Shown here: positions 17,237 through 53,873 of the stretch, piece by piece
Numbering within the stretch: the stretch's first letter is position 1
How the letters are laid out: every line of letters starts with the position of its first letter
Origin: Psilocybe cubensis
Lineage: Eukaryota
Length of the DNA: 64,000 nt
Reading direction: 5' to 3'
Assembly (NCBI GenBank): GCA_017499595.2
Contig: CM038998.1
Span: 1,674,001-1,738,000, forward strand
Translations under genes and position numbers: made by a program
Notes under the pieces: generated by a model
The model's input: only the letters and a program-made list of their open reading frames with translations
The model's database searches: none
What the model was told of the DNA's origin: nothing

Positions 17237-18997
<1,761 letters not shown>

Positions 18998-28815: not shown

Positions 28816-29349
28816 CATGCTGGAAAAACCGTTGGCCAAGGATGTGTTTCATTGATCAATGGTTTGACACCAACTATACGCGGCGACAATACCACATGAC
28901 TTATTTTTCTCTTACACTGGTGGATTGTATGTCGATTCACCATCCTTTTCAAGTCCATGAAGTCATAGAGAACCATGGATCTTTATTTACCGCAGTGCTT
29001 GCGTGTTCTTTTACGTCTCTGGCATGGGGTGTACTTCGGTACTGGTTGCATGGGGTTACAGTTATGCATGCACATGAAACTCACTACTCTCGCTATCACA
29101 TTCTTTATCATGGATCCTTTTATTCTGACTTTGCATCGATTCATGCTGTTTTAGTATTTAAAGTGATGATCGCTACTACTTATCGTTTCTCTCTATTCAC
29201 TGTATTTTTCGCCTTTCACTGGCTCGTTCAAACGATTATCATGCGAATTCGAGGAGGATACTTTACAATTTAGAGCAAAGACACAATATAATTACACGAA
29301 TGGAACAGATAATTTTCGGACCAACGATGTAGAAACAAGCTACATGCAC

Positions 29350-31074
<1,725 letters not shown>

Positions 31075-31300
31075 TATGTTTGAGAATGGGAAGATGTGTG
31101 AGCAGCGGTGTAGGCTTGATATATCGCTTGATATCTATTTTTAGGCCATATGTGACGCATGCAGTGAAACTGGATCGTAGACTGTCTGACGGAGGGGCAA
31201 GGTATTTCATTGGGATGATTGATACATTTGAGTTGTTATTCTATGCGAGCCAATACAGGGCCAGGTCGTGTTTTACAAGTTGTGATCGGATATTACTATT

Positions 31301-33015
<1,715 letters not shown>

Positions 33016-33408
33016 GGTGAGTAGGTGGTGGAGTAGTTGAAGAAAGGGTAAAGAGATAAAAAAGTTATCGCGAATCAATCTTAGTAGGGATTGCAAATTC
33101 CCACGATGAATAACGTCGATGAGCAAGGAATGACCGCCATCGTTCGTCTTCGGACTCCCGATCAAAACCCGACGGTCGGCTCTAGTTTGCGTACCTGAGG
33201 CCATTCTCGCATTAACCTGGGTTACTCTAGTCTTAGCCCGCGTATCCTTATCGCATTATCATTCTCCATAATCCAACCTATATCTACATGTGCAAAACAC
33301 TAGCAGCCTGTGCTCCAGTAAGCGCCACAGATCCACGAATAGACAGATATCATACCGTGTCCGTCCCCCAACTTGCACACTCATCTATCAATCATCTATC
33401 GTTCAACT

Positions 33409-35738
33409 CTACAAAGCACTCTTTCTGCCACCTTTCTTTCCGACTGGCAGCGTCCTCATCAGCGCCGCTTTCGAGCGGTTCTTGTTCTTCACATTGTTTG
33501 AGGTGTAAAAGTTTGCGGGTTTACGCTGGGTGGATAATAGAGTAAGGATCAATTCATCGGAAGACCAGAGATAACATGCCTTGTTTGTTGTCATCCGAGC
33601 CTCTTTTTTATTAGCGGTGTCTTCATCTTCGGATACGCCGTCTAGAAAAAAAGATATCAGTAATATGTATCAACTCGGGATATCTGACCCACTGTCAATG
33701 GCCGCTTCTGCAGGCACAGGCCCGGAATTGATGCCTTCAAAGACATCATTCCATTTCAAGTCATCCTCATCCTCCTCATCCTCGCTATCCTCCTCTTCCA
33801 CCCCTTCTTCAGCGACAGCTGCTTCCTCTTCGGGGGCTTCAAATTCTTCTTCAATTTTCTCGATATCCTCGGGCACAAACGTGTTTTTCTGTATCAAGGT
33901 CTTTAGGTTTTGTTTTACACCCGGAACCTCCTCATTTTGAGAAGCTTTCCCCTTTCCTTTAAGGTCTTTTTTCCTCTTAATTCTAGCCTCAGCCTCGTTC
34001 AACTCTTCGGTCCTTTCCGGAGGTGGCACAAAGAATGGAATACGTCCTCGAACCCAATCGCTGAGTACGATTTTTGCAACCGAATCCAGATCTGGCTCGC
34101 CCTGTTTTAGAAGACGTCCTTTTTTGCGCGCAAGTTTGTCCAAGAAATCCTCAGGTTTCCAGCACTCAGTCGGATCGTCCTTGTTGGGCAGGGGTATGTC
34201 GTATGTTCTAGATAGATAAATAGGTTTCACCCGTGCCATAAGTGCAGGGATATGCTCGGATGGTGTAGGAAGTGCTTCCACTCGAACAACACCCTTCAAA
34301 ACAATGGAGGACTGTGAATCGTTCGATGAAGCAGGTACAACTCCGGGACAGTCAATCAAGTAGATCCTCTTGGTGAGGGTAATATATTGCCAGACCTTGA
34401 CGAGCATGTTAGCCAAATGATTCCACGACGCACATGTCATAATGGCCCACCTTAGTTTCCCCTGGCACTGGCGCAACTGTGCAAACTTTGCTACTTTTGA
34501 TGGTGTTGATAACACTACTTTTACCAACGTTGGGATATCCAATGAAACCGACAGATATTTGTTTTTTGTCAGAATGAAGCTGAGAAAACTGTCGAAGTAG
34601 TTGAATAAGAGAACCTTTCCCGAAAGAGTGGTTGGGAGAAGCATGGAAAGCGATGGTAGGATAACGAGGTGTGAGATGTTTGATGTATCGAGCCTATATT
34701 ATAGTCAATAAAAAAATCATCGCCGAAGAAAAACACTCACTGTAACCCAATTCGGGACAAGATCACACTTGTTAATGACAAGCACGACTTGCTTATGGGA
34801 CTTCTCTTTTTTAATGGATTCGAGGACAGATTCACACATTGTTCCCAACGGATCGCGGGCGTCGAGAACATGGAGGATAACGTCAGAGGAATCGATAACT
34901 TTATAAAGTTCCCCAAAGATACGGCGAGATGTTCCTTTGGCATATATTGGCTCCTTGAAGTCAGCGTGGGTTTGAGGCTCAACAACAGTGGATGCAAGAG
35001 GTTCTGTGACCGAAAAAAAGATCAGAAAATGCGGTGACTACATGAACTGCACATACCCATGACACCGGAACCAGATATCGACGCTGCCAATTCTGCTGCA
35101 TCTGCTGCCGCTGCACCCATCTTTCCAAGTTCTTCAAAAGAACCGGCATCAATTCTAGGTTTTTTCCTCTGTGCCTTGGGTCCAAAAGTCTCTGCAAAAG
35201 GTTCGGTTTCTACGATATGAGGGCGCTGTTAAGATATATAACATTAGAATTGATCCAACAAAATAAATATCACACCAAAAATCACCTTACGAAGAGCAGG
35301 GTTGGCCGCATCATCTAGAAGCGCCATGGGCAGTTTATTTCTTCGGAGAAGGACAGAATATGGGTCATCCTTTTTGGCAGCAAGACTTGTTCTAAAGTGA
35401 TCCAAAGCTGTCTGAGAGATAACTCTGGTGTTTCCTGTCGGAAGATTCTGTTCAGTCCATATTCAAGGCAAGAATCAAAGAGACGCACCAAACCATCTTC
35501 GGTCCGGCTGCACTCTTCCAGGCTTCGTCTCGTCCTCTCCTTTTTGAAAGGCCGCAGCTTGAATGATCTTTCCATCCTTGTCGCGGACAGCCTTTCCGCT
35601 GTTCAGCATCTTTAGCCGACCGACTTGTTTAGCATTGCGATAGAAATTCTCTCCTTTGACTTTAGCTAAGGAGACATTGGAAGACGAGGTCGACGACCTC
35701 GTCTTCGACTGTGAGGCTGACTTTTTTGAAGTAGCCAT
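33409..35738 (-). CDS. NOG2: Nucleolar circularly permuted GTPase Nog2
   Basis: [36 protein letters not shown] and GEPDL...[10 protein letters not shown] motifs. Acidic C-terminal tract. Confidence 0.96.
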
Positions 35739-36053
35739 ATTGGAAGGAGACCTCGAAGATTTGTTGAGGTTCAAAGTTGGCCTGGACAGACAATATAGTC
35801 AGAAAATTCTTGATTGACTATATTTTTTCCCACGCTCTCACCATCCCATCAGGTCACCGGTCACCACCCTACTTACAACTTTTGGCTGTTTGATCGTTTT
35901 GCGTTGTATATACGTATTCAAAGAACGATGATTCTTTGATCCACAAACACTCCAAAACTAATTCAGAAATGGGATACCAGGGCGATTTACTGAGCGTTCC
36001 AATACTCGACTACAAAATAGATCTATTGTAACATAAAGTCTATGAGTTTACGT

Positions 36054-39000
36054 TTACAATGCGGCGCACAACGAGCATTTCTTCGGGAGATAATTGGTCC
36101 ACAAGAGAAGCAAAGTTGTTGTAATTGTGTGCCGCCGACTCTCGGATAAAAGACAATAAATGTGCCTGTGTACATGTTATTTAGAACGACTGACTTCGTT
36201 GCTAGACATTGCTTACCTGCATATCCATTTGTGAGACAGGGTCGTTTTTCAAGTCCTCATCGTCGTTGTCATCCAGGATCTCATCGTTGTCAAAAGCCAT
36301 ACCCTTTGGTCCTAGCATGTCGGAGAGCATTGCAAATTCGTCTTGTTTGAAGCCTTGATGTGTTTCTTCTTCAGTCCAGTCTTCGTCCTGATGAAATTGC
36401 TTAGTAAACTATCGATAGCATGCTTGAAAACTTACTCCATCATCAGAGTCCACATCAAATGTCCCTCCTTGAGCAGTCAGGGTCGCTGATTCTCCGCCCG
36501 ATTGAATATCATGGAGAATGATTTTAAGCGCCTTTGCCGGGAAAGAGATGGCGGTGAATTCGTGAGGAGCTGGCAGGTGCAGAACATGTTAATAATGAAA
36601 GGTTGAATATTATGATAAGCAAAGTGCATACTCGTCTTCGTCCGCGAGCGAGTCATAATGGCTGCGGAAACAGAGATGGTATCTATTTGAAACAACATGA
36701 ATAAAAGCACTCACTATTCTTGGTCTCAGGCTTAATGATAATATTTCCTTTGACAGTTAGGTTCTGCAAGCTCGGGCGTTGCGCAGTGAATAGCTGTGTT
36801 AACGCAAGTGTGCTAACACGGGAAGGCCAAAAGCCCTGGAAGGTCTCGGCATTTTCGCACCAAGTTTGTATCAATATATCTAAAGCCGAGCGATTATCGA
36901 TATTCATGGACTCCAAGAGGGAAAGGACAGTGTCACGTTGGTTGTTGATCAGGAAGGCGAACGGAATTACAAGGCTCTATAGAAGATATTAAGATCCATG
37001 AGAACTTTAGTCATTCTACGCACCTGCAAGAAGGTAGCAGTTTTAGCACTGGTCATACGTAAAATCATTGCTTGCAGGAGTTGAGGAAGAACAGGGAGGA
37101 CAGCCTCGCCTGCTCTTCGCAAGAGATGAATAATCAAATCGCCTATTTGTAATCCACCCGATTCATCCTGGCTCTGTAAGATTTGCGCTACGAGAGAAAG
37201 AACGTAGTCAAGGCCATTCCTCCCGTTATCATCTTTCCAGGAAAGCAACTGATTGCAATCTTTGCGAATAATTACTGTTAGGCAAGCAATACCATTCTGA
37301 ACAAAAAATAAGCAGATATACAAAAACGAGGGAAAAGATACCAACTTGTAGAACATCGCGATCCTCAGCAAGGTTTAAGCAAGCAAACAAACTTGGACCA
37401 AGTAAATTGAAAAAGCCGTCTCCAAGCCCATTGTTAGGGGCACCTTTTACTAGGCTGCTCACGAGATCGATGGCAGTACTTGCGACCCAGGATTCCTCTT
37501 TCTTCGCGGTCGATATGGACGCGCTTAGGATTGGCAAGGCCTGCTTTACAGAAGTTTCGTAGATACCTGGCGCTGGAGACGATGCCAAACTTCCCATGAT
37601 ATCAGTCAGTATCGATATAAAGATGGGATCTAAGCTAAGATGAATAAGTCTGTGTTAAACTGAACATAGAGATGTCAACCTTTCGTATTTTTACTCCACA
37701 CTTCTAGAGATGCAGAGATCAAATATTCTGTGAGGTCTGGAGTTAGCCATTTCCCTTGATCAATTTCAATGACCACTGATAATGTTTCAAGGATCAATGA
37801 CAATGTATCTTCTGAAGCGATCAATAAGAATGGGCCCAGGTCTCGCGCGATCCGCGGCGCGAAAACGATAAAGGCAGAGTCTTCTCCGTCTTGACAGAAG
37901 CTAATATGGGCATTAGTATGCAAACATTGTCGGATAATAAAGAACAATTACTTGTGTACTGCTTTTACTGCTGAGATTTTGACAGGGACGCCAGAGTCCG
38001 CCGATTCCAGTACTTGAATGGCAGCTTCCAGATAATGTCCAGCGGACTGGAGGGGTAAAAGTTTCGCATATTTACTGGCAAATACAAAACCTCGGCCCTG
38101 TAGGAATGGGAAATCTGAGAAAAACGGGTTAGTATGTCTTTCGTCTGGTGGTCCAATGATTTACCAGGCTGGCTGAGAACTGGAGGAATCACGTTCGCGA
38201 GAAGGTAATCAATGTCAATGGGCTTAGGATTTCCTGATTCTTGTTCGTCTTCAATACAATCTAGAACAGACTCGGCCTGCGACCCAACTGCAGCGAGCGC
38301 CGCTTCAAGAGGCCTCCACCTTCAAAAGAGATCCATATTTTGATTTAAATGAGTGTTATGAAACGACATACCAGTCACTGTCACCTGAATTGTGAGCCTG
38401 TTCTGAAGTTCGTATAACCTGTTCTAGGCTGAGTTGTATCGATTTTGTAGTTTGTAATGCTGTGCGTTCAATTAATGCCTGTAAAACGGATAAGAACGGC
38501 ATCAATTAAACAGAAAATTGACGTACCCCAAGCAGGTCAAACCCAGCTACTCTGACACTGTATGCCTGTGTTTCGTCTTCTTCTTGAGCAACAAAGTCAT
38601 TGGCGTTATTGGTCCATGTCTCCACCTGGAATAATAAGTCAGATACTCGCTTTCATCATCGGTTCAAAAACATTCACGTCGTCATCTGTCATTTGGACAA
38701 AGGCGAACACTGAGGAGACAACAGCTGCAACATTTTCGTCGACAATCCAATCCTTTCCTTTTCCACCTCTAATTACTGCAGCGAGGAAGTCGATGATTGG
38801 ACACAACAGTTGAGGGAGTTCAATGGGTTCATCTTCCGAAGAATTAGGGACGGATTCAGCCGCCGCCAGGTAGTAAGTCGAGAAGGTCGGGTACAGGGAA
38901 CGGAGATTGTTTAGCGATGCATTTAAGAAATCAGATAGGTGAGGGACAAGAGCCCTTGGGAAAGAGGTGTGCAATGTGTCCAGAGTCTGGAAGAAAGCCA

Positions 39001-40104
39001 TAAGCATACAGCATTTGATGAATTAATTATTTACCTTGAATACTTGTATTCTTACTGCTAGACCGTCCCAAGTAGAGTTGTTGGCAATATCATGGAGAGG
39101 ATCGATGTTAAGCAGAACCTTGAAGGCCTCTAACCAAATAGGTAGAACAGATGCAACAGCCTCTTTGACCGATTGCGGGTGTTGATCTTTCACCATGAAC
39201 AGGGCTGTGACGCATTGACGGAAAACGGATACTGTCCTTGCCCTGGTTAGTGCTGAATGAGCCTATATAACGTTTCAAGTTAGACGCAGGAAAGCGACAA
39301 GCGTAGAATCCATTACCTCCGATGCTCCTAATATACCAAGCAAAACAGGAAGAAGTTGACGAAGAACTGGGAGAATTTGATCTTCTGTCAGATCCGACTT
39401 GATGAACTCGGTCAAAACTTGCATAGCGCCATGTACGGAATCAGCGGAACCCGATGACAGAAGACCAATTAATGATGTCAATAGCTCTGGATATTCATCG
39501 GGCCAATCACAGTTTGCAATAGAAGAGAGGGTATGTGCCTGCAGGGTATCTGGTGAGTTAATAAGCTGTGAACGGGCGGAAAGCACTCACAGATAGGCTT
39601 CGTATCTTTCGATCTTGATCTGAGAGTCCGCGGAAGACAGCTTCTCGGATTTGTGATTTAATCTAGTAGGATATAATTCGAAAGGTAGAATAATACAAAG
39701 TGAATACATGAGCATACCTCTACATTAGGCGCCGAGCCTTTGAATGTTTGGAAATAAGGTGACCACCTTTCCCGAACATATTTTCGCAGTGCAATGCTAG
39801 CAGAGTAGAGAGAGATCGATCATCAGGATCTCGCGGACACGTAAACAGAAACATTGGTGACTCATCTGTCGGAGGGATTGTTCAGCATCTTGTGATAGAA
39901 CAAGGCGCGAAAGAGACAGTCCAGTATCTATTTGACGCGAATGGCCAGATACAGGTTAACAGTGCTCTGCAACTATAGAAGTACCAAAAAGTGCGCGCCT
40001 GAACGAGTGAAAAGTTCTGCCAAACTGAGCTCAGCCGCAATACGAGTATTTGTATCAGGACTCAGCGTCCCGGAAAGGGTTTGTGCAATCTCAGAGGTGG
40101 CCAT
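36054..40104 (-). CDS. KAP114: Importin-9 / Kap114 (importin-beta family HEAT repeats); many exons, first two introns non-canonical
   Basis: IBN_N domain LSPDTNTRIAAELSL...LRQ/SASIALRKYVRERWSP, IANCDWPDEYPEL, WTNNANDFVAQEEDE, and IMTRSRTK/..PHEFT near the C-terminus. Confidence 0.93.
39805..39865 (-). other. Predicted AT-AC intron (intron 2 of importin-9)
   Basis: CAG|ATGAGT...CCTGAT...CTCTAC|TCT. The only plausible splice that restores the frame LRQ-SASIALRKYV. Confidence 0.75.
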
Positions 40105-40222
40105 GACGCTAGAAATCCGAAGAACGTCTACAAAACAATCATTGTTGTGCCAAAATGTCAGCACAGATGGACACTACGGTCACATCACGTGAAGAGCGCG
40201 TCTCGAGTGTCACAACTCACAA

Positions 40223-40370
40223 TTTTTTTTGTTGTTGTTGTTGCAGAGTTGGTCTCCGACATCGGCTTACTCGACCGCACATATAGTGCCGTTTCACCGT
40301 AGGGAACATCTTAGCACGCTCGTTCTAGGGGCAGTGTAGGACTGAACCCCACTGTACCATCAACAGCCAC
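40223..40370 (-). mobile_element. Candidate SINE-like / retroposed structured RNA with (CAA)n-A8 tail
   Basis: A-box-like TGGCTGTTGATGG, B-box-like GGTTCAGTCC, consecutive hairpins, then CAACAACAACAACAAAAAAAA. No clear TSD. Confidence 0.3.
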
Positions 40371-40914
40371 ATTTAAGATTGGAGTTTTACTGCATAGTTG
40401 AAAATATTGTCAAAAAAGTCTAGATTGTGTGCCATTGTGTTTAATCCATCGTCGACATACATGTTTGGCATGTTCAAGGCTCAAGTCAATGATTACTTAT
40501 ATATTAACGATATGGTCTGAATTCGTTGACGTCTATTTGGTTCTCCGCAATTTCGACAGGTCCGCCCACTGAGCTTGGACCTTCTGCACCTGTTAAGGCT
40601 TTGGTAGACTAACTTTTCCTTTGGCGTGAATTGAATATGCGAAAAGGCGGGCAAAAGCGAAGCGTTGCCTGACTTGTATATATTCTTCGTTGCCTTTGGT
40701 TAGTTCCTTCAAATGCTACTAATGAACATCTGGTCAATGATAGTAATGTGTTATTGTGACTTATATGTTCGCATCACGTGAAAAATGTCACGCGCGATAG
40801 TGTAAATTGGCGTGGTGGGCCCTTCCTTCAATTACTTTTCACCTGTCTTCGCCATTACAGACAATCTGCCGAATTGTCTCTGGAAATTCATACACTTTCT
40901 GCATATATTTACGT

Positions 40915-43521
40915 ATGGCGTATTTATCGGAAAATTTTGATTTGCAGAGTTCCAACTCTACCACCTCCTCAGAGTTACAATCTGGCAGTGAAGTGCATAA
41001 AAGACGCAAAATCGACAGCACCCCTCACAACCCGAAAAGTCACGAAGATGAAACTCACTCCATTAAGCTACCGAATATGGGTCGTAGAAGAGGTAGGAGG
41101 CTTGCTGCGCTTCCCGGAATGCCCTTGGATATCTTGTTTGAGGTATAGTAATTTCTCCCTTTTGTACCGTTTGTTAACTTGCATGTTATTATTTGAAGAT
41201 ATTTGGACATCTTCACCCTTATGACCTTCTAAAGCTGTCGAGAATGTCTAAAGATTTTCGACGATTACTTCTTAGCAAGTCATCCGTTTCCGTATGGAAG
41301 GACAGTCTCGCAAATGTTCCCGGTTTGCCTGAAAGCTTTCCGGGAATGACAGAAGTGGAATGGGCAAACCTGGCCTTTTCCCCACATTGCCATGTACATG
41401 CTATCCGATTCTTTTAACGGGTACATCAATCTCTGATTTTTCGGTCTAGGTTTGCCTAGCTCCAAACATCAGGGCGGTTGAATGGCGTTTTAAAATACGG
41501 ATTTGTTCAAAATGTGCCAAGGACCAGTGAGAAACTCCAACCGTTCGCATTTCCTTGGGCACCTAAATGTGTTGCAGTTTCAGAGAATTTTCACGCATGC
41601 CCATGCTTGACCGCACCTTCCGTACCTTACTAGGCGATGTCATTCCAACGCGAAGAGCAAAACGTACGTTGTTGTTGATTCCTCATTATGCATCCCAGTG
41701 AAATCTGAGTTGAATTCTAGGAGGTCATGCAGTTTGTCTTGCCTCCGATTTCGATGCAGTAATGTCAGAGTACAAGGAAATCCAAGATGATGAATCTCGT
41801 ACACAATACATCAGGGGAAAAAATGCTACCCTTGACAAGTTTCTCAAAGTAATTTTCTTGACTCACGATCATTTTGTATGTTATTCAAAACATCATAGCA
41901 CGCCCAACGCTGTGAGCACTGGGAAGGCACCCAATCTCGAGATCGCTGTGAAGAGTTAGAACAGCTGAGGAAAGAAAGATTAGCCGCGTAAGGAATCAAT
42001 TACTTAAGACTGAAGCATATTCACTGACGCGCTGTGTAGTATTGAGAGGAAACTTATTGAACTCGGATGGGAGCAGGATGTTAGAGGCATAAAGTATCCA
42101 GACTCACTTGCTAGGCATAAGCTGGTGCACCGACCTCAACTTTTGACAGAAAGGAGTAAGTTAACCGCAGCAATTTTTTTCTGTCTTGCAAAAACTTACC
42201 TTTCCAAATATCCTAGTATGGACTAACATCAAGCCTGGTATTATAGAGTTCATGGAAGAGATGAAGGAGAAACGATTGAGACGCGAGATTGAATCAATAC
42301 ACGCAGCACGTCGCAAAATTTCACTCGATGCCGTTCGCACCTTCAAGAAATCAAAAATGAAAGACAATATCCTCATACCAACTAGTCTGGAACTGTGGCG
42401 ATACCAGCCTATCGAAGAAATCATCAATGCACCTCGAGATAAAAATATAACTGTTTCCAGCTTTGACGAAGTCATGCTTGATTTTCCGAAGTTTGTTAAT
42501 GAATGGCGTCAATCCATTGCTCAAAGGGTAACTTCTATTATAAAAAATATCCAAGGCGAGGTGCGGGAGGATTTTTGCTACGATGATTTCTCTGAACAAA
42601 CTTCCAATAAAACCAACAAATTATTTCCCAATGCCAATCTATCCGAGGACCAATTGTTAGCAAAAATGTCGCTTGCTTCCACAGTCTTTCGATGCAACCG
42701 CTGCAATCGTCCGAATTCATGGGATGATTGCGCCTGGGATCTCGACGACAACTGGGTAACGTTGTCCAATCCATTATTTTATCCTCATGTTCTTGGACAT
42801 CACTGCCTTTATGATGATGATGATATCTACATCTATGACCAACCACGAGGTCAGCTATGGAGCAGTACTTCCCTGGCCTATGACGCACTGTCCAGTAAAC
42901 ATGCCGAAAAACTTGTCGAATCGATCGGTGGTGATCCTGCGGTAACTACAACCGACGATATGGATGGCCTGAATCTCAGATTTCTCTGTCGCCTATGCCC
43001 AAAGTCGAAGGAGAAAGAACATGAAGAACCAGTTCTGCCTTTGTTTGACTGGCGCGCTGCGGTAAGACCTGAAGCCAAGTATCTTTTTCTCTCGATGCTA
43101 ACTTTATTGCTAGATCCAGCATATGACTGACTATCACTATTCCAAGTTTTCATTCACAATTGTCAAGCAAGTCAATTTGGATCATGAAATCATCGAAGCC
43201 GAGGCAGATTATAGGGACAAGGATCCAATATGGCGATGTATACATTGCTATGGCACAAACCAAGACCCTCAATCGCCAATGACCGTCGAAAACGTTGCAA
43301 GACATTTTTCCTACGTGCATCGGGATATCCTTTCACCAATTCGCCACGTAGACTATTATGAAGATTTCGCTTCCCCAAACTTGCATACCAACCACTATCG
43401 TCATCATATACTCTACGTCCGCTGCTTAAAAAGTGGACAATACAAACTGGCCACTGAATTTATGGAATTGTCGAATCCTGGCGTTATCGGCCATGTCAAC
43501 TACGGGTTTGACATCTATTGA
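40915..43521 (+). CDS. F-box protein of the agaricomycete-expanded type; ~9 exons
   Basis: F-box LPGMPLDILFE/IFGHLHPYDLLKLSRMSKDFRRLL followed by several CxxC motifs. GT-AG introns keep the frame. Confidence 0.85.
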
Positions 43522-43751
43522 ATCAAGTGCACACTCACTGTTGAATACCTACATTTCTAATCTGTCGAACTTCCAGACTTTTGGATCCTGAGTTCTGATT
43601 GAAGATGTATGATTCATTTTTTGCACAAGTCCTTTCACATAATAGGAAGTATTGACATATCGATACAAACATGTGGTCCTTCTTCTCCTTGTATAAAATA
43701 CATAATACATAGTTTTAACATACGAATTAAATTTACAATCATTGAACAAAG

Positions 43752-45263
43752 TTAAAACCCCTCTTTACCCATGTCCCACTCTCGTACAGACCCTCTCTTC
43801 TTGTACTCGATGTTCATTATACTGGCAGTCTCTCCTGCCCATCTATCGGCGACAGCTGGACCCGAATCAACTACAACGCCAGACTTCTTGCTCTTGCTCT
43901 TTTCTTTCGGTGGTAAGAGTCCAAGCCTTTCTAATCTCTTTTTCTCCTCTTTGTCTTCTCTCCGAATGCGAATGAGTTCTAGCATTGCATCCCAACCCTC
44001 GAACTCGGCGTTATCGATAAGGCCTGTCGCTGGGACTTTAGGCGCCGTGAGCGGGGCAACGTCAAGGCGTGGGTCGTAAGATTCTTCGAAATAACGATCC
44101 ATTTTTGAAGGAAGTTGAATGGCTGGCTGTGGACCGGGACTTGGGGACCTTGAAGGCGCCGGAGACGAGCTTCGTTTAGATGATAAAGCTACTGCAGGGT
44201 CGAAGTTATCCGCAGCGCCTGGTTGTTCATACCCTCGGCTGTCTGTCCTACGAGAACTCGGTCTCGACTCGGAAAGTAAGGAAGAAGATCTGCGGTCTTT
44301 CGAAGGAACATCGTCGCGTATGTCGTCTAGTGCATATTTTGGTGACCGTGAACGTTTGCGCTTTCTGGGGTTTGAATCTTCGCTTTGAGAACGCGAACGA
44401 TGTCGGCGGGCGGGTGAACGACTGTTGGATCGACGAGGATGGTAACGTTCTCGACTACGGTGATGTTTATGGCGACCAGAACCTTCGTCGTGGGGATCAC
44501 GACTTACGTTTGTGGAGTCAATCCTCCTGGGTGAAGTGCTTCGACTGTGACCACGCCTATGCCTTCTCCGATGTGAGCCCTCTTCTTTCTCATCATCTTC
44601 AAAATGATGAGTTCGTGAAGACCCGTCTTGTTTACGGGCTCTACTCTTCGACCGAGGCTTTGACCTGCTTCTGCGGCGTCTCCGAGGCTTTTCAGAGTCC
44701 TCGTCCTCATCATATCCGTCCCATACCTCCCAATTCCGTGATACTTTCTTCCGTTCAGCGGTCCTTCCGTCCCATCTATCCCAGCCGTCCTCATCATTTG
44801 CCCTCTTCCGCTTTGAACTCCTTCCAGATCGGCGAAGCCTTTCTGCCTCTGCCGCCTCCTCTGCCCTGGCTCGACGCTGTCTTCTCTCCTGTTCCTCCCG
44901 CTCTCTTTTGACTTCTTGGGCAGCCTGTGCCTGTGCCTTCAATATTGTCCTATTGTGGTCGTCTGTACTCTTGATAATGGAAGATAGGAAACGTTTGTTC
45001 GGCTTCGGGGCATTGGGGTCAGAACTACAAGGACAAATAAGTAACAAAGGTGAGAGCTTGGTAAAACGTAATGCATACACATTGCTGGAGATATAGGCAC
45101 GGATGCCCTGCTGGCCATAGCGTTCCGCTTTCTTCTTTGCCTCCCGTACTATGAGTTCAGCGACATGGCGATCGAGGTCATCGTCGGTAACGGTAGCCGG
45201 TACGGAGGTGCCCATTGAGGCCCGAACGAGGCTTGAGACGACTGACGACAGCGACGACGACAT
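43752..45263 (-). CDS. Arg/Ser-rich putative nuclear protein; 2 exons
   Basis: Ordered N-terminus (DLDRHVAELIVREAKKKAERY...PNKRFLSSII), long RS/RH-rich middle, C-terminal VREWDMGKEGF. Confidence 0.8.
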   Translation of the reverse strand: MSSSLSSVVSSLVRASMGTSVPATVTDDDLDRHVAELIVREAKKKAERYGQQGIRAYISSNVYALRFTKLSPLLLICPCSSDPNAPKPNKRFLSSIIKSTDDHNRTILKAQAQAAQEVKREREEQERRQRRARAEEAAEAERLRRSGRSSKRKRANDEDGWDRWDGRTAERKKVSRNWEVWDGYDEDEDSEKPRRRRRSRSKPRSKSRARKQDGSSRTHHFEDDEKEEGSHRRRHRRGHSRSTSPRRIDSTNVSRDPHDEGSGRHKHHRSRERYHPRRSNSRSPARRHRSRSQSEDSNPRKRKRSRSPKYALDDIRDDVPSKDRRSSSLLSESRPSSRRTDSRGYEQPGAADNFDPAVALSSKRSSSPAPSRSPSPGPQPAIQLPSKMDRYFEESYDPRLDVAPLTAPKVPATGLIDNAEFEGWDAMLELIRIRREDKEEKKRLERLGLLPPKEKSKSKKSGVVVDSGPAVADRWAGETASIMNIEYKKRGSVREWDMGKEGF

Positions 45264-45691
45264 CAAGACCAGCCTAATTCCGTCAGCGCTGAGACGGTTG
45301 CCTGTGGAATGCAAATAGATGGAGGGTCGACTTGGAAGACGAACACCAGCGTCGGGGACAACTCAGAAAGGACATGATGTGCTTGGTGTTATTTGGCTAC
45401 GGTGGCAGACCACGAGGTTAGGTTCAATGAGGAAAGAGCGTGGCCCATTTTGACTCAATACCATATCCAAATTGAGACCAGGCCCCTCGATCATCTACAT
45501 ATTTCTCAGTTTCCAACGCCGTGTTTCAAGAGGTTAGTCAATTGATGGCGCGCCGTAATGACAGCGGGCACAACTCCCGGCGTCACAGTTTCCCTGGAAA
45601 TTAGCTCTAATTTTCGTCGACGCTCCCTAACCTAATGCAGAATATGACTAGGAAATCAGAACAGGGCCACAAACCCTAATAATGGAATATA

Positions 45692-46283
45692 AGATTGGGC
45701 TCATCAGAAACCAGCACCCTTACGTAATCAATGGGCTTGGCGCCAAGAGCGGCCAAAATCCAGCTCGAAAAAAAAATCAAAAGTTATGTTGACGGAAAAT
45801 GGTTTCAGACAAAAAGTTTAAAAAAAAAAAATTCATAAATGTGCATATACAATCCTTACTACTAGCCTTTATGCCCACAATAATAGAATTACACCTCAGA
45901 GGTCAAATTGTAGTCTCTGGAAGTCCATAATGAGTCTGAGAGGTATTACTTAGGCGTGACTTATTGTCACGTGTGGTCACGTGTACCATTATATAAGCGG
46001 CCAAAAGAACATTGTCAAATTTTCGAAAATCTCCCAAACTCGAGAAAACACCATTTCTGACGTGTTAGACTAAAAAAAAAGGAAAAAAATTAAAATCTTT
46101 ATAACTTCTTGAGATCAAAATTTTTTTGAAAAAAAAAACCACAGATGTGTTCAAAGAAGCATAACCTACATATCTGTGGTTCAAAAATGTAGAATAGTGT
46201 GAGTGCAGAAGGGTTGAAAAGGTTCGGAGGTAAGCCAACTTTTGCTTACCTAAGGGGGTGCTGGTTCCTGATGAGCCCAATCT
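45692..46283. mobile_element. Non-autonomous DNA transposon (MITE), 592 bp, TA-flanked
   Basis: TIRs AGATTGGGCTCATCAG(A/G)AACCAGCACCC (27/28 identical, extending imperfectly to ~40 bp). TA at 45690-91 and 46284-85. A/T-tract-rich non-coding interior. Confidence 0.85.
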
Positions 46284-46325
46284 TATCTCTAAATCAAAGA
46301 TGATGTATCTATACGACTAGTAATG

Positions 46326-46343
46326 TATATATATATATATATA
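46326..46343. repeat. (TA)9 microsatellite
   Basis: tatatatatatatatata read directly. Confidence 0.9.
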
Positions 46344-46654
46344 ATAGTTATAAGTAGTTTACTAATATGATGGCGAATGTGCGAAAGTAGTGGTCTACTA
46401 TTTGAACAGGAATGTAATGGAGAACGAAATGAAGTAATCTTCGATTCACGGTGGATGAAAATGATGCATATTATAGATAGCAGTATTATATGAAGGCCAC
46501 AAGGTGTTGCGCCAATATAACAGTAGATAACGTGAAAAATTGCAGGAGAAATGAATTGCTTGATATACAGTGGTGTGATTCGTGGCGTCGTAAAATGCGG
46601 GCGTAACAGTGATCCTTAGCAGGCGGGGACAGTTTTAAGTAATCGGAAATCAAG

Positions 46655-47860
46655 TTACACTGGTTTCTGATGATACAAGTAAGCACATCGTTCCATGAAA
46701 GAAAAAGTTGAAAGGAAACGTACAGTCATATCCAGCGTGCGAAACGCCCGCAAATCGCTGGTGATCTTCAGTTCTATCCCTTGATATACACATGCCATTT
46801 TGAGAGAAGGAAGGAGAGAGTGGGAGCGGCCGCTTTCCCATTGTTGGACGTCGATGGTCTTCAATGATTCGTTCGTTTTGATAACATCAATGACAAAGTT
46901 TAGAGGTGTGTCACGGTCTAATCCAAATGCCAGATGTTCTACTTGTCGGGGGAAGCACTTGTAAAGGCTTGGAGGTAGCAAAGGGTTCTCTGTCCTCAGT
47001 TCCACTAGGCCATTGCACTTCGAAACAAGGTTGGGCAGCTCGGGTGAACCAAAAGCTGGCAATGACATCGATTTCAAGCTTGAACCATGGGCGTTGACTA
47101 GGTATTCAAGCGCCTCAACGGAGGGGTCTCGTTGGAAGTGCAAGGTTCGGAGAGAGCCGGTGGAATTATGGAGAAGCCACTTCAGAAAATCGACGGAAGG
47201 TGTCGTCTGGAAATTGAGGCGTAGCCCGCGAAGCGAGCAAGGGAACGGGGGCGGGGAACTCTGGAGATGCTTCGGTGACGTGCCTCCGATTGATAGAAAT
47301 TGAAGAGATGGCCAAATTTCGAGCAATTGGAATATGGACTGCTGATTTTCCGACCAGTTATCAAAATGAAGGTGATCGATCCTGGGTCCTGCTTTTAGGA
47401 GCGAAAGAGTTTGTTCATCGAAAGATGGTGCGGGTCGTCGTAAACGTGAAACATCTGGGGACCCGACAATATCTTGGCCGGGCTCTGCACACCCATACAG
47501 GGAAATATCAAGCTCTGCCAATTTGGGACACGCGTTGACGGCCAAAGCGAACGAGTGGGGGTGCAAACCAAGGGGCTGGTTGTGGTCCAAAACGACGCTT
47601 AGACGCTTGACCGCGTCTCCTAAAATAGCGCCATGGGGAGTGCTACGATCGACGGCGCTCATGAAGAGCTGATAGGAGCGCTGACTCCGGAGGGAAACCT
47701 GGGAAAACAATATTCTTTGGGCAGGGGTAGACCAGGCTCTGCAGACCAACGAACAGGCCCTGAGGAGAGCGACATAGGCGTGTGTGTCGACCTGGGTGGA
47801 GGCAGCCTCGATAAAGGACAAGACGAGCTCGAGAGGCATTCTAGGAGAGGTTTGGGGCAT
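46655..47860 (-). CDS. F-box-like / LRR (RNI-like) protein; 2 exons
   Basis: MPLELVLSFIE...LRACSLVCRAWSTPAQRILF F-box-like motif followed by LxxLxL repeats. A short in-frame terminal intron precedes KPV*. Confidence 0.82.
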   Translation of the reverse strand: MPQTSPRMPLELVLSFIEAASTQVDTHAYVALLRACSLVCRAWSTPAQRILFSQVSLRSQRSYQLFMSAVDRSTPHGAILGDAVKRLSVVLDHNQPLGLHPHSFALAVNACPKLAELDISLYGCAEPGQDIVGSPDVSRLRRPAPSFDEQTLSLLKAGPRIDHLHFDNWSENQQSIFQLLEIWPSLQFLSIGGTSPKHLQSSPPPFPCSLRGLRLNFQTTPSVDFLKWLLHNSTGSLRTLHFQRDPSVEALEYLVNAHGSSLKSMSLPAFGSPELPNLVSKCNGLVELRTENPLLPPSLYKCFPRQVEHLAFGLDRDTPLNFVIDVIKTNESLKTIDVQQWESGRSHSLLPSLKMACVYQGIELKITSDLRAFRTLDMTVRFLSTFSFMERCAYLYHQKPV

Positions 47861-49933
47861 AGGTCGGGACAGAGAGGGAGTTGAGAGGGTGGAGCAAGAA
47901 GAAACATTATGCTGGATAGGCCTCGGAATAGTATAAAAGCTAGAAAGAGAGAAGGAGCAGGCTCGTGTCGGAGAAAGTTGGAGAGAGAAGTCGAAGAAAG
48001 GCATTATGGCAGAAAGATTTCCGCCGGTGGATAGGGATACAGAGGCAGCAGAGGCGGAAGCATAGCAGAAGAGGAGCTGTATATAAGTAACAAGCAAGTA
48101 AAGGAGTCACTTCCGTCAACTCAGATCTCCGATGACATATACTACCGTGCGAATTCAAATATTTCCGCCTCCATTTCCAACTGCGGATCTTGCCCTTTCT
48201 CTTTTGTTCTCTTACCACCATCCTCAGGTTACCGTCACTACGGCATTAACCTCAAGGGTCACACAGAACCTTATGTCGCCCCTTGACACCTCCGAACAAT
48301 GCGCTGCCACCGTGCTTACCACCATTCATCTTGCCATAAATGCTCTCTTTTCTGAAATCCAATCCAATATTCGATTCTTCCACCTCGGGCAGTCACTAGA
48401 GTCCCATTCGTCTAATTTCATTCACATCATTCCCCAAGTTTCATCTTTCTCATCATTTCCCGTCATTCGTACCTTGCAGAATCCTGCTTTATACCTCCCA
48501 AAATAGGCTTTGCCCGAATGGCATCCAATTTATGGTTATTAACACAACGCCAGGGCCAAGGCCTTAGGTTCGTTTCATCCTCCACTATGTGGAGTTCACT
48601 AAATTACTGGACAAATCTTTGAAGATAGGTTGTTTCCTTCCTATCGCTCGGACTCGGATCTCAACAAAACACAAACAATCCCCAATGGTAAACGACTTCA
48701 ATGGGTTCTAATTTATGTCACCGCAGGCAAATGAAAATGTTGTCGCATGTGCAATGTTTCTACTCCTGTTCGTGGAACATCTCTCTATCAGCGACAAAGC
48801 GTGCTTCCACCGCTTTTGAGCGGTAACATGCCATTTCCTCGAGGCCGACTTCTGTCCATGCCCTCGCTTATCCCGCATACCTTTCCTGAATGCGATGTCT
48901 ATCTAAATACACCTAGCCTAATACTGTGCTCAGAATAAGCTTTTCTCTCTTTCCATTAGCTTTGGTGCTCGTGGCACATCGCAACTTTTATTGAGGTGCT
49001 ATCTATGTTTTTTTGGATCGTAAACTTTCAAAAGTTGCTCTTCAAAGGTAACCTGTATTATTACAAAGTTAGGCTCGCGAGAATAAAAGAAAAATGCTCC
49101 GCCCCGAGACTTGGCGTCGATTATGTTGATGCTATATATTGTCTGTGTAATAACAAAAAATTACGACCGTTTTTTACGGCCTCAAGTCTAGGATCGAGTC
49201 AATGCGCTCACTATCCTTACACCCATGCAATAATCCCGAAGTCCCGGTCTTTTTTGCATCCGCAAAAGGCAATTTGCGGCATGTTTTAAGTATACCATAA
49301 ACGTGGTCAATGGGTATAACGTACCGCAACTCTCACGCCAACTCTGAAAAACGGCGCATTGTTCTGTCAAAATAATTGAGATGATGCGTCCCGTGAGTCG
49401 TGTAGAATTGACAGAACAATAAGCCATAGGTGTTTTTATGCGGTAGTAGTCGGTTGACACCGATATACGCGATCGAGAACGCGTTGTACTACCGAGAAGT
49501 AGCGTGGTACTGACAGTGACAAAACCACGCGAAATTCTGCAGGGACCCTCTGATCTACACATTTAAACTTATCGCAGGCTAAAGTGTTTACGTTAACTTT
49601 TACAACACTGTTTCAGTGAAGCACCGACATCTGGTTGACGATGGAAAGAATGTGTAAGATTCTGAATGAACAAGGTGTTGATGGCTGCACCAGTACGTTT
49701 GCATCTTGTTCTTCAATAAGTTTGGAGAGTACTATCTGATATGAAAATTGGGGATAAAATCGGCAACTTGCTAATGAACGCATCTCGGTGTTCAAATATC
49801 CCGGATAAACGGACCGAAAATTTGACGCATTTTCGAGCTTTGCGAGAACTTGAATGCTTTCTCAAGTGGTACATCAACCACGTACGAATCCGTTTAATGG
49901 AATTGAAACTACACCCAAGAAAAAGGGCGGGCT

Positions 49934-51958
49934 TTATGATTCATCTCCGCTGTCTTCTTCGTTCTCTTCCAATACAAAGTCTTCCCAGTCCATTACCACA
50001 TTCGGTAGTGATTCACCACCGCCCTCAAACGAGGAGTCTAGCTTAACTCCATAGACGCCTTCTACCAAGGCTCGCCTCACAAACGGTATCAGAACTCCAA
50101 AGTATACCTGACCGAATGCCATAATCACCCTCTTCTCCTTTTCGTTTTCATCTTCTCCATCATCTGAATTGCTGTCATTTGCAATCGATGGCTCATCTCT
50201 GCAAAATGCTTTGATGTATGCGAGCAGAGCTTGACCTCCGTTGCACAGAACGTCATCGTCTAAGATACGAATCAGGGTTGGGAGGATATTTGTAGGAGCA
50301 AGTAGTCGCAGTCCGTTTAAAACCCCAAGAAGAGAATTGGTGTGTTCAGCGAGCGGTGGATACGATGCCAGCATCTGGGGTGGAATATGAGGGGGACTTT
50401 GAGAAAAGGTGGTGGTAAGGGCCGTGGCCGGTGTAACAGGGACCGGTGGTAACTCTGCAGTATCAGATATGATTAACCACTTCGAGGGTGTTTCCCACTT
50501 CGCCTTTAGTAATACGCCATTGGATCTTTGGGTATCTATTCGACTTGTGGCTGAGGGTACCTTAAAACGTGCAACGAAAGTATCGCTTGCAGATTTCATT
50601 TCATGACTGATGACTTCAGTCACTGCGTCAGAAAAAAGGCAGGAGAGGATGCTTCGAAAGTCTAGCCCTACCCGCGCGAAAGCAGTGGAGCAGTAAGACA
50701 GCTGAGTAAGAAAGGATGGTAACAAAGAGAGAGATAAAAGAGGGAGACTGGGGGATAGCAACGGCAACAGGTGCGTCGTAAGCGCACGAGAAGCGTAAGT
50801 CGTGATTAGAGAATGTAGTCGTATCCAATTATGACTGGCGTCGGTTGTCTGAACAGAATCCGATGTAGTTTTCGCGGAGGCGGGTTTCGTAGGTGATTGT
50901 GGTACTGAAGTGGTAGATGACTTTTCCAGGAAAATGGTCGAATACTGAGTGATGACATCATATACACCCTCTCTCCAGAGATCAATGTATTTCTTAAGAT
51001 ACCTTGCAAGGTCTTCCTTTTCTCGGTCGTCCAATTGTCCATGGTTCGTCATACGCAAAACATCACTCCCGCAAGGCTCCAAAGTCGATTTTAAACAGGA
51101 TTCTCGACCTACAAGGAAGGCTAGAGCGATCTGTTCCTCGCTGCTGAGATCCTCTCCAAAAAAATCACTGAATTTGTCGCGGTCTGACTGGGCAGAAACT
51201 GTCTTCAAGACTGCGGAGGTAAACGGGGAGGATGGGCCAAATACATCCATTTTTCGCAAGAAATTTACCGCTTTCCAGAGAGCCGGAAGCTTACGATTTG
51301 GTTCGTATAATGTTGTCAATAATGTTAGCAACATCTGCATGATGGAGTGGTGGACCTCCGAAAGAACAGAAGATAGTATGAGAGTAGGAGGTTTGTTTGA
51401 TAGCGCTGCATTCGCCGCTAACGACTTGGCGTGTGATACAAGAGAGAGCGCCTCTGAAAAATAACCATTCCGCACGCATGTATCGATGAGAATTGGAATC
51501 TCCAATAGGTCCCGTATCTTTTCGTGCTGTTCCAACACAATGCGAGCCTTGCTCCGCTCCTTCAATATTGTGTCTGTTCGTTCTTTCCATCCTGCTGCAC
51601 ATTCTTCCAAGGCCGGTAGGCTTGAGGTCAAAAGGGAGTCGAGAGACGACGAAAGGGTTGTGAGAGATGCAGTTAATGCGTTGGTGGTTTGGTGTAATGA
51701 CAAGAATGTGGGGTAAGAGGTATGCGTAAGAGACGTTAAACTTGATGTAAGATGATGTGACTGTGTTTGAAGAATAGCAGGTTCCGCCAGCAAGTCTTGT
51801 AAAGAAAATGTTGTCAAGTTGGAAAGGTATGCTTGAGACCTCTCTTTTGTCAATTCTTCGAGTGGTAATTTTGATGACGATGCGATAACGTCGGTGAGAA
51901 AAGACACGTCGACTAAACGAGACGTGCTGGACACTGGTGTAGTCGATTCCTGGCTCAT
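49934..51958 (-). CDS. COG8: Conserved oligomeric Golgi complex subunit 8 (Dor1), single exon
   Basis: 674-aa ORF with LLEIPILIDTCVRNGYFSEAL, LSYCSTAFARVGLDF and PPLAEHTNSLL...LNGLRL motifs. Confidence 0.92.
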   Translation of the reverse strand: MSQESTTPVSSTSRLVDVSFLTDVIASSSKLPLEELTKERSQAYLSNLTTFSLQDLLAEPAILQTQSHHLTSSLTSLTHTSYPTFLSLHQTTNALTASLTTLSSSLDSLLTSSLPALEECAAGWKERTDTILKERSKARIVLEQHEKIRDLLEIPILIDTCVRNGYFSEALSLVSHAKSLAANAALSNKPPTLILSSVLSEVHHSIMQMLLTLLTTLYEPNRKLPALWKAVNFLRKMDVFGPSSPFTSAVLKTVSAQSDRDKFSDFFGEDLSSEEQIALAFLVGRESCLKSTLEPCGSDVLRMTNHGQLDDREKEDLARYLKKYIDLWREGVYDVITQYSTIFLEKSSTTSVPQSPTKPASAKTTSDSVQTTDASHNWIRLHSLITTYASRALTTHLLPLLSPSLPLLSLSLLPSFLTQLSYCSTAFARVGLDFRSILSCLFSDAVTEVISHEMKSASDTFVARFKVPSATSRIDTQRSNGVLLKAKWETPSKWLIISDTAELPPVPVTPATALTTTFSQSPPHIPPQMLASYPPLAEHTNSLLGVLNGLRLLAPTNILPTLIRILDDDVLCNGGQALLAYIKAFCRDEPSIANDSNSDDGEDENEKEKRVIMAFGQVYFGVLIPFVRRALVEGVYGVKLDSSFEGGGESLPNVVMDWEDFVLEENEEDSGDES

Positions 51959-52528
51959 AGTCGATGGGATATGAATATTCTACTAGATTCTATTATGGTT
52001 GGAACGCGTGGTGGTAGCTTCGAATGGTGGATAGGTCGTTAGCAACATTTGGAGGGTCAGAGATAACTCAGAGAAGACACCCACCTCCTTATTCCTTATC
52101 CTAGTATAGGTCAAGATTGTGTGGGTTGTCGGGAATCATGACTGTGATCGCGGTGGGCACTATTATGTAACTACCCCTCTCTTTCCTCCAGACATCCATT
52201 GCGTTTCTCAAACAGAGCCTCAAATGATGTGCCTTGCGACTTAACTTTGTACTCCCTTTATAAATGGCACGCATATCTCCCCACCCTATGTGCCCAAGGT
52301 TTGCCCAGAATCTTGTTCAATGTTTACTACCTCACCGGGCCGCTGGGAAGGGTCACGGCTGCTGGCTTTTATTCGCATCCTTTTTGGTTTGAAGTGAAAC
52401 TGTGCCGCGATCGCATCTCCTCCTTTCGCTGGCATGTCTCATCACTATCCTTTATATTGGTCTAGTTGTGACTTTCTATTCGTCGACTTGACTCTACCCA
52501 CCCTCCTGTTTTTCCTTGGGCGGCAATC

Positions 52529-53726
52529 ATGTCTGCTGAAACGTGGAGAACGACATTGGCGGCGCTTCGTCTGAAATACAAGATGCCTACGACCATCAGT
52601 TACCGACGTCTGCTCCTCATTCGTATAGCAGCGGTCTTCTCATTTACGGCGTATGCTTGTTCTCAAGCCTATGCTTTGCATCTTCCTGGACCGGAACCAC
52701 CAAAGCCATATTCCCCGAATGACTCGTTCATCATCACCTTCTTCGTGCTGTCTGCGATTATAAATATTCACTGGCTTCTCCAATTGTTTTTTGAGTGGGA
52801 CATTTCTGGAACTACGCTTCCTTTGACATTTGGATGGAGCGAAGAGCCTTGCTGTATATCGGCGGACGATGAACTCTTAACATCGCCTAATCTCTCTGAA
52901 GAATTCGATCGTGACGCCCGTGTTTTTACCGCAAATCTCAGTTCCGCTCAAGTCAGGTGCATCCCTTTCAGTATAGCAGGCAATGTTTTCATGGGTGTGG
53001 ACTTTCAATCTGTCTTCTACTTTTGAATTCACACTGACCTACAACTTACAGCTGCTTGGGGATATGCCTGGTCAAATGAATACTACACAGTATCACAGAT
53101 CATGCTCACTGCCAACCTCGCTACCAATCTTTATGCTGTTTTCATGCTTCTACATGTCGAAAACGATGATCGCATTACTCCTGCCAACTATATTACCCAC
53201 TTTGTCATGAAAACGAATACTGGGCTTGCGGTGCTTTACATGTGGAAAAACTGGGGTGTTATTGATGTTGGTGCATTTTCTCCGATACAACACAAGCGGC
53301 TGATCGCAGCATTAGCCATCAACAACACCTTCTATGGCTGAAATGATCAATAGCTGTGTCATATTTCTTTTAATGGTGTGTTCCCCCATCCTTTTTTGTA
53401 GCCATATTTCTTTGATGCTCACTGACTTGTAGACAGTGGGGTCGGGTCCAGATCCGACTTTGGGCATCTGCCTGCTCTATGATCTAACAGCACTCATTTC
53501 TGGCGACACCACAAGCGAACTGTGGTATTATTCGTTCCATTGGACATCAATAGCTGTCAGCATGTGTCTCCTAATCGAACTCAAGTTATCACGGAGCAAC
53601 AACTTTTCCTGGTTAAAAGGATTCGACCAGCCAGTGGGCCTCTGGTTTCATCGAGACCGACCTGGGCGAATTTACCTCGAAAAAGATCTTGAGAAACGCG
53701 GCAACGTGACCTTCGTTCGTTCCTAA
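52529..53726 (+). CDS. Hypothetical multi-pass membrane protein; 4 exons
   Basis: ORFs 52529-53026, 53102-53341 and 53436-53726 join via three GT-AG introns. Several hydrophobic helices. Confidence 0.7.
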
Positions 53727-53873
53727 AATATCAACTACACTATATCATGCAGAATTGCAGTCATACATATGTATTTCCATTTTTTGCTATAAAACTCTCG
53801 GCCCTCTAAGAAGTTGAACGACCTTTTAAATGGCTTTACATAAGCCGAAATGAAGGCTGTCACCAGTCTTCGG

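Follow-up and report, generated by a model that had tools for sequence, protein, structure and literature searches.

The importin-9 locus and its AT-AC intron

We analysed a 64,000-nucleotide (nt) stretch of the Psilocybe cubensis genome (assembly GCA_017499595.2, contig CM038998.1, positions 1,674,001 to 1,738,000 of the forward strand), hereafter called the window, and focused on an intron in it whose first two letters are AT and whose last two are AC. Open reading frames and sequence place this intron in a single host, an orthologue of importin-9 (KAP114 family) that is encoded on the minus strand with its ATG at 40104. When a translation containing exon 5 was used as query, 228 protein matches were obtained. 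The top match was 'Importin-9 [Psilocybe cubensis]' with 97% identity, followed by a P. cyanescens protein (92%) and then by many Agaricomycetes proteins. Precomputed Pfam annotations of many relatives matched by this query include PF25018 and PF03810, and Pfam runs on single exons of the window returned no family at the cut-off. The host protein is thus similar to named importin-9 proteins with N-terminal and central HEAT domains, as expected for a member of the importin-9/KAP114 family.

An earlier note on this stretch, made from its letters, had described the exon edges and AT-AC termini of the intron, a CCTGAT motif within it and a TAG met on read-through. All of these statements agree with the window. 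The importin frame resumes at 39804 with TCT GCT AGC ATT GCA CTG CGA AAA TAT (SASIALRKY). The CCTGAT motif is at 39827..39822; its A is separated by 18 nt from the 3' end of the intron, and a pyrimidine run comes after the motif. Reading through out of exon 2 shifts the frame and leads to a TAG stop at 39799..39797. The note had further claimed that the AG acceptor nearby has no phase-2 donor inside the 61-nt segment, and this was borne out: the GT or GC dinucleotides of the segment are in phase 1 (39861, 39852, 39846, 39840 and 39834) or phase 0 (39838), and none is in phase 2.

To cover other ways of joining exon 2 to exon 3, we enumerated all GT-AG, GC-AG and AT-AC pairs that leave an open frame. 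Six such pairs exist, four of them canonical and two AT-AC. Among the six, only the AT-AC pair 39865..39805 restores the conserved protein (...SLRQSASIALRKYV... / ...SLRQSASIALRKYVRERW...). The second AT-AC pair costs 13 residues. Each of the four GT-AG or GC-AG alternatives was rejected, as it deletes between 17 and 30 residues, the conserved LRQ among them.

Assembled contigs of two runs, X10 and X11, and raw DNA reads of a third, X14 (of which about 26% was sampled), were aligned to positions 39200-40300; a further run, X5, gave no alignment. The X10 and X11 runs carry the label of a closely related organism; about half of the sampled words were found in them, and their designation as RNA is a guess. 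We found a joint 39804->39866 in both, in X10 record 1 (3093 nt) and in X11 record 3 (259 nt). It skips 61 nt whose ends on the plus strand are GT..AT, equal to AT..AC on the gene strand, and its ambiguity is 0. The junction CGACAG/TCTGCT, predicted beforehand, is therefore present exactly as written in contigs of two runs. In all, the X10 and X11 contigs skip five stretches, namely the AT-AC intron (in both runs), three GT-AG introns and the GC..AG stretch 39928..39998 (in X10 only). The joint of the latter, intron 1, is 39927->39999, with CT..GC ends on the plus strand, a shorter side of 25 nt and an ambiguity of 2, and it is the reading frame that requires phase 1 there. As the 3093-nt contig is devoid of five introns at exact splice boundaries, its source would be spliced RNA. 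No intron-retained form was seen in the contigs of X10 or X11, from which rare forms are dropped.

The X14 run consists of raw DNA with the same organism label as X10 and X11. Its reads cover the region continuously, at about 40x over the intron, and contain no joints. They show no base difference at either terminus, 39805 or 39865. The idea that the A and C ends are assembly errors, which the earlier note had named as its own undoing, is contradicted by these reads at both ends. X14 and the window disagree at no positions other than 39835, 39880, 40174 and 40193. At 39880 all reads of the related organism have G>T on the plus strand, which turns Gln into Lys in exon 2; at 39835, inside the AT-AC intron, 34 of 46 DNA reads have G>A, with the loss of a CpG.

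Table 1. Exons, introns and splice signals at the 5' end of the importin-9 gene (window coordinates)
Feature	Positions	Strand	Description
Exon 1, coding part	39999..40104	-	MATSEIAQ...ELFTRS and base 1 of an Asp codon; N-terminus as in relatives P0001 and P0002
Exon 1 boundary	39999	-	from joint 39927->39999, X10 contig
Intron 1, 71 nt	39928..39998	-	GC-AG, phase 1; donor GCGCGC (a poor site), acceptor AAATAG
Exon 2, 62 nt	39866..39927	-	..TGLSLSRLVLSQDAEQSLRQ; last codons CTC CGA CAG; joints on both sides in X10 record 1
AT-AC intron, 61 nt	39805..39865	-	phase 0; ATGAGT...CTCTAC; joint 39804->39866
5' splice site	39860..39865	-	ATGAGT; U2-type GTGAGT with A at +1
Branch-site-like motif	39822..39826	-	CTGAT; its A (39823) lies 18 nt from the intron's 3' end; motif match
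3' splice site	39805..39810	-	CTCTAC; pyrimidine run, then YAC
Exon 3, 87 nt	39718..39804	-	SASIALRKYVRERWSPYFQTFKGSAPNVE; from contig joints and sequence
Intron 3, 55 nt	39663..39717	-	GT-AG; GTATGC...CTACTAG; joint 39662->39718 in X10 and X11
Exon 4, 72 nt	39591..39662	-	IKSQIREAVFRGLSDQDRKIRSLS
Intron 4, 52 nt	39539..39590	-	GT-AG; GTGAGT...CTGCAG; coordinates set from sequence (joint reported as 39537->39590, 'cut +1')
Exon 5	39317..39538	-	AHTLSSIANCDWPDEYP...; low end from joint 39261->39316, 'cut +1'

Downstream of importin-9, at about 34700..35800 on the minus strand, open reading frame translations reveal a gene resembling the nucleolar GTPase NOG2. In Cyclocybe aegerita, a model with 1675 residues bears the name 'Nucleolar GTP-binding protein 2' and joins NOG2 to importin-9. 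The NOG2/importin-9 neighbourhood is therefore conserved, and this model is a merge.

Conservation of the intron and its fate in public gene models

The earlier note had proposed that conservation of the AT..AC termini be checked across Agaricomycetes. We scanned metagenome contigs with a search alignment of nine N-terminal stretches from correctly modelled relatives and obtained 80 loci. The LRKYV..W motif served to locate exon 3, and the RQ codons to locate exon 2. In this way 77 loci were parsed automatically, and the other three (L013, L045 and L048) were parsed by eye and anchors. In 79 of the 80 loci, AT..AC termini stand at the same phase-0 site, between the codons for RQ and SA, so that the conservation asked about is in place. 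The sole exception, L073, has a GT-AG intron (GTCAGT...TTTGCAG). Its protein is 85-93% identical to Sporobolomyces proteins, and on account of this similarity the locus is placed in Pucciniomycotina.

Together with the window, the loci contain 57 distinct introns of 47-85 nt, for which single-linkage clustering at 75% identity yields 33 clusters. Interiors of these introns have diverged freely, and the AT..AC ends are invariant across the 33 clusters. By best similarity to named proteins, relatives of the loci include Leucocoprinus, Piloderma, Suillus/Rhizopogon, Dentipellis, Hebeloma and others. For L045, which has the AT-AC intron, the nearest is Tulasnella (66% identity), a member of an early-branching order of Agaricomycetes. 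The recurrence of the termini in 79 of 80 loci and the contig junction are together more than chance.

The start of exon 3 in relatives also bears on a same-length alternative splice. TCAG opens exon 3 in 16 of 54 distinct loci, and a GT at intron +5 would give there a GT-AG intron of equal length shifted by 4 nt. Such a splice would encode M/I-T instead of S-A and is formally possible in those 16 loci. In the window, exon 3 starts with TCTG, and the shifted pair (donor at intron +5, acceptor 4 nt into exon 3) is impossible.

The neighbouring intron 1 varies among the loci. Eleven of them (L001, L004, L005, L009, L010, L012, L043, L044, L047, L051 and L052) belong to one lineage about 50% identical to named Polyporales proteins. 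In this lineage intron 1 has been lost, exons 1 and 2 are continuous and the AT-AC intron is kept. Among 37 representative loci that have intron 1, its donor is GC in 14 (GCGCGT, GCGAGT, GCTGGT and others) and GT in 23.

Introns 1 and 2 of the loci are also enriched in CGCG-containing motifs (TTCGCGTCA, GACGCGTTT and CGCGTCTTGA), counts of which are inflated by the shared ancestry of the loci. For intron 1, 23 of 47 loci carry them within its final 45 nt (12.8 per kb), and their distance to the 3' end is often exactly 12 nt. For the AT-AC intron the figure is 18 of 54 (8.0 per kb), and for intron 3 it is 7 of 51; the whole-locus rate is 3.7 per kb. Sites in the window are TTCGCGTCAA at 39930..39945 in intron 1 and CGCG at 39832..39836 in the AT-AC intron. 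We take these motifs to resemble the ACGCGT cell-cycle box of yeasts.

We also surveyed public protein models, using the 120 matches listed of the 228; all counts that follow refer to these listed matches, 112 of which have at least 700 residues. The conserved junction RQ/SA.. is present in 34 of the 112 long models, and the remaining 78 deviate from it. The deviations are of several types. In 13 models the length is unchanged and S-A is replaced by I or M followed by T, S or P (T in ten); 36 models have 1-21 extra residues behind RQ; 17 are without the end of exon 2, and 12 without the start of exon 3. Predictors had been expected to mis-model this intron, and they did so in the nearest two species as well. 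In the P. cubensis model, exon 1 runs into intron 1 and exon 2 is skipped; the P. cyanescens model is mis-modelled and also lacks most of exon 3. The broken N-termini are attributable to two non-canonical introns, GC-AG and AT-AC, standing back to back.

The way in which the models deviate carries information on the termini. All 49 listed models that run past RQ continue with I or M, both of them ATN codons; V, the residue that a GT start would give, is seen in none. In 33 models a residue precedes the kept start of exon 3, and it is H in 30 and Y in three, both of them YAY codons, as expected for an intron ending in YAC. Public models thus support both conservation of AT-AC and mis-modelling by predictors. 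As a consequence, the N-terminal Ran-binding domain of a housekeeping nuclear import receptor is corrupted in most public models from mushroom-forming fungi. Fungal annotation pipelines should permit ATRAGT...YAC introns.

Splice signals and the removing spliceosome

We counted splice signals position by position in 53 distinct orthologous AT-AC introns; the values are per-position counts. At the donor, A at +1 and T at +2 are found in all 53 introns, followed by A (22) or G (31) at +3, A at +4 in 40, G at +5 in 53 and T at +6 in 52. The acceptor has C (33) or T (20) at -3, with A at -2 and C at -1 in all 53. Exon positions -3 to -1 are CAG in each of 54 distinct loci, although CAA also encodes glutamine. 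In the window the donor context CAG/ATGAGT fits the U2-type consensus apart from +1, by the criterion of Sheth et al. 2006. As a control, GT-AG intron 3 of the same loci has a markedly looser donor, with A at +4 in 12, G at +5 in 36 and T at +6 in 23 of 51. The AT-AC intron therefore has a near-perfect major-type 5' site except at +1. A branch-like NTRAY motif is present in 51 of the 53 introns, typically 15-19 nt from the 3' end with a median of about 18 nt.

Signals of the U12 type are scarce by the same counts. The branch-site consensus of U12-type introns is TCCTTAAC. The branch region of the window, TCCTGAT, does not conform to it, and a TCCTTRAY match was found in one of the 53 introns, that of L079 (TCCTTGAT). 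None of the 53 has the U12 donor ATATCC, none even starts with ATATC, and the donors do not follow RTATCCTT; donors with ATATGT are found in 10 of 54 distinct introns. An Rfam scan of the whole window (1..64000) at gathering threshold gave 0 RNA families, a result that carries no information on the genome outside it. The contig junction, donor positions +2 to +6 and the missing U12 motifs bear out what the earlier note had put forward, namely that importin-9 has a natural AT-AC intron whose signals are of the U2 type.

A second dinucleotide near the acceptor is of interest. In 28 of the 53 introns the terminal AC is preceded, at a distance of 3 nt, by an AG (AGCAC in 25, AGTAC in three), and the window is without such an AG. 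If AC is used despite the upstream AG, the A at +1 would override a nearby YAG.

We consider it very probable that the importin-9 intron is a constitutively removed U2-type (AT-AC type II) intron of the major spliceosome, located in the N-terminal importin domain of importin-9/KAP114. In the proposed pathway, CAG/AURAGU would be recognised by U1 and later by U6, as it presents a normal 5' consensus everywhere except at +1. U2 would pair with the branch site, a CTRAY-type motif at a distance of about 18 nt to the 3' end. In the second step, an A(+1)/C(-1) pair would replace the non-Watson-Crick G(+1)/G(-1) contact, and such a contact would be the reason why YAC, not YAG, serves as the 3' splice site. 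The changes at +1 and -1 may thus compensate each other, and a reversion at just one of these positions is expected to hamper the splicing of a gene that is needed. We propose that harmful single reversions would most simply account for an AT-AC pair that stayed fixed across Agaricomycetes while the intron diverged.

Several points weigh against this interpretation. Removal via U1, U2, U4 and U6, and not via U11, U12, U4atac and U6atac, is presumed. That the lineage is without a minor spliceosome comes from literature on Basidiomycota and not from this genome: the accessible text of two papers reports no convincing minor introns in Ascomycota and Basidiomycota (Dikarya) and a loss of minor small nuclear RNAs (snRNAs) (PMC10639083; PMC2846911). 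The NTRAY search gave no match in 2 of the 53 orthologous introns, and the branch point in the window is a motif match only. In the 28 introns mentioned above, the upstream AG might be used in place of the AC; clean gene models suggest the AC. The RNA origin of X10 and X11 is deduced from five precisely skipped introns, with the label guessed. Lastly, contigs that drop rare forms are blind to splicing efficiency or to a retained form.

Origin, alternatives and relation to known introns

The protein models provide hints as to the age of the AT-AC termini. Among Microbotryomycetes, 17 named models from Sporobolomyces, Rhodotorula and Rhodosporidiobolus are clean, and three from Microbotryum are disturbed in a manner fitting an AT start and a YAC end (RQIS...DH/AAG, RQINH/AAG and HY/AAG). 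A start with I or M is also seen in models from Wallemia (RQITGI) and Kwoniella (RQMRV). Models from Calocera, Cronartium and Violaceomyces are clean, and clean models are compatible with any termini. If these hints hold, AT-AC may be older than Agaricomycetes, and Sporidiobolales would later have switched to GT-AG. Otherwise, AT-AC would have arisen from GT-AG at the base of Agaricomycetes.

One alternative is that the intron is a relic of a U12-type AT-AC intron. Here, a minor intron of the basidiomycete ancestor would have drifted in its donor from ATATCC to ATRAGT upon loss of the minor spliceosome, the major spliceosome would have taken it over, and its ends would have stayed. Its AT-AC ends fit this scheme, as do the ATATGT donors in 10 of 54 distinct introns and an ancient site in common with the Sporobolomyces-like locus, where GT-AG occupies the same phase-0 position. 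The Microbotryum, Wallemia and Kwoniella models add a hint of an AT start beyond Agaricomycetes, and the intron lies in the 5' part of its gene, a region reported to be rich in conserved U12 introns (PMC2426677). However, ATATCC was kept in none of the 53 introns and TCCTTRAY in only one of them. The intron is in phase 0, but minor introns are biased away from this phase according to the available text of PMC10639083. Our literature search linked IPO9 neither to 'U12-type' nor to minor introns, although supplementary gene lists could not be read and such a listing could exist there. On balance we regard a U12-type ancestry as rather unlikely. The same low chance applies to the wider proposal of a fossil of the minor spliceosome, in which the 5' and branch sites were converted, AT-AC was kept and Sporidiobolales finished the switch to GT-AG. 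If it were true, Dikarya would keep datable traces of a lost second spliceosome, and the intron would be a test case for the rescue of U12 introns.

Selection for slow splicing offers another explanation of why the termini persist. The intron would then exert rate-limiting or condition-dependent control of importin-9 output, with retention leading to a premature stop. Retention does shift the frame into the TAG at 39799..39797, the termini are invariant over 33 diverged intron clusters, and enrichment of CGCG motifs in introns 1 and 2 might mark regulation. Nevertheless, a fitness valley between AT-AC and GT-AG accounts equally well for the invariance, and a Sporobolomyces-like relative copes with GT-AG. 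No retained form is seen in the X10 and X11 contigs, though contigs drop rare forms. We hold this explanation to be unlikely.

Removal of a true U12-type intron by a residual minor spliceosome is very improbable. In its favour are the AT-AC ends and the TCCTGAT of the window, in which 5 of 7 letters agree with the beginning of the U12 branch consensus. Against it, the donor in the window is ATGAGT, not ATATCC, which is likewise absent from all 53 orthologues. Neither minor introns nor minor snRNAs are reported in Basidiomycota in the accessible text of PMC10639083 and PMC2846911, and Rfam gave 0 matches in the 64-kb window, which says little on the rest of the genome. An artefact (terminal assembly error, template switching by reverse transcriptase or a decaying pseudogene) is hardly credible: non-canonical junctions from single data sets are often artefactual, but this joint has no shared letters and was found in two runs, independent raw DNA reads match both termini, the spliced frame restores a protein segment invariant in relatives, and the termini are identical in 79 of 80 orthologous loci.

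Returning to a U2-type AT-AC intron handled by the major spliceosome, we compared it with known systems. Original work on such introns in animals is reportedly that of Wu and Krainer. Introns of this kind form a defined rare class, with 24 cases among about 610,000 introns of five species, and some fungal xylanase genes had earlier been hypothesised to carry them, as stated in the accessible part of Sheth et al. 2006 (PMC1557818). Animal members of the class show the same compensation by a strong 5' site (PMC1557818; PMC5029451, accessible text). Like those of SCN4A and SCN5A (PMC1557818), the importin-9 intron has AT-AC termini, a 5' site that is of the normal major type in all other respects, and long conservation. 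The 5' consensus is unusually strong in both, ATAAGT in animals and ATRAGT in fungal importin-9. Unlike the animal type II introns, the fungal one resides in a host reported to be without a minor spliceosome, and its orthologues are short, at 47-85 nt. Dependence on the major spliceosome is experimental for the animal cases, and for the importin-9 intron it is deduced.

Fungal AT-AC introns have been recorded before, as far as the accessible parts of the sources go. A curated annotation of Ganoderma lingzhi has 13 AT-AC introns among about 92,000 (PMC11590231). One of them, in chr6g0094801, was confirmed by reverse transcription-polymerase chain reaction and Sanger sequencing, and an earlier model of that gene was broken by the unrecognised site (PMC11590231). 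This gene resembles importin-9 in coming from Agaricomycetes and in having AT-AC termini, a broken model and a GC-AG intron in the same gene, but it encodes a DNA-polymerase zinc-finger domain, and neither its conservation between species nor the type of spliceosome is mentioned (PMC11590231). An annotation of Coprinopsis cinerea lists AT-AC among its named splice-site subtypes (PMC12230235). In a survey of annotations, AT-AC is rarer in fungi than in animals and plants (PMC7072748).

Yeast provides a functional precedent. Saccharomyces cerevisiae, which is without a minor spliceosome, splices an engineered A(+1)/C(-1) intron (Parker and Siliciano 1993, as related in the accessible text of PMC5029451). 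In this double mutant the major spliceosome alone suffices, a result that underlies the explanation by a compensating pair (PMC5029451). The yeast mutant is artificial, whereas the importin-9 splice is natural, productive and conserved. The one natural AT-AC case in yeast given by the same source, inside the RPL30 intron, has a donor that departs from the consensus and accounts for 1-2% of transcripts (PMC5029451). In comparison with U12-type AT-AC introns, the importin-9 intron shares the terminal dinucleotides and a 5' location in a conserved housekeeping gene. It differs from them in its donor (ATRAGT, not ATATCCTT), in the absence of a TCCTTAAC branch site, in its phase 0 and in a lineage reported to be without minor snRNAs.

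Our literature search found no AT-AC intron described in fungal importin-9/KAP114, with the supplementary gene lists beyond its reach. U2-type AT-AC introns, and AT-AC introns in Agaricomycetes, are already in print; the importin-9 case appears to be newly described. It is a deeply and unusually well conserved new case of a known kind of intron and not a new mechanism. It may represent a natural, long-lived instance of the compensating pair of first and last nucleotides known from yeast genetics, in a lineage that reportedly has only the major spliceosome. With a relative that carries GT-AG at the same site, it would provide a comparative and mutational system for studying how the 3' splice site is chosen in the second catalytic step. 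The same system would address how the two-step fitness valley between AT-AC and GT-AG comes to be crossed or fails to be.

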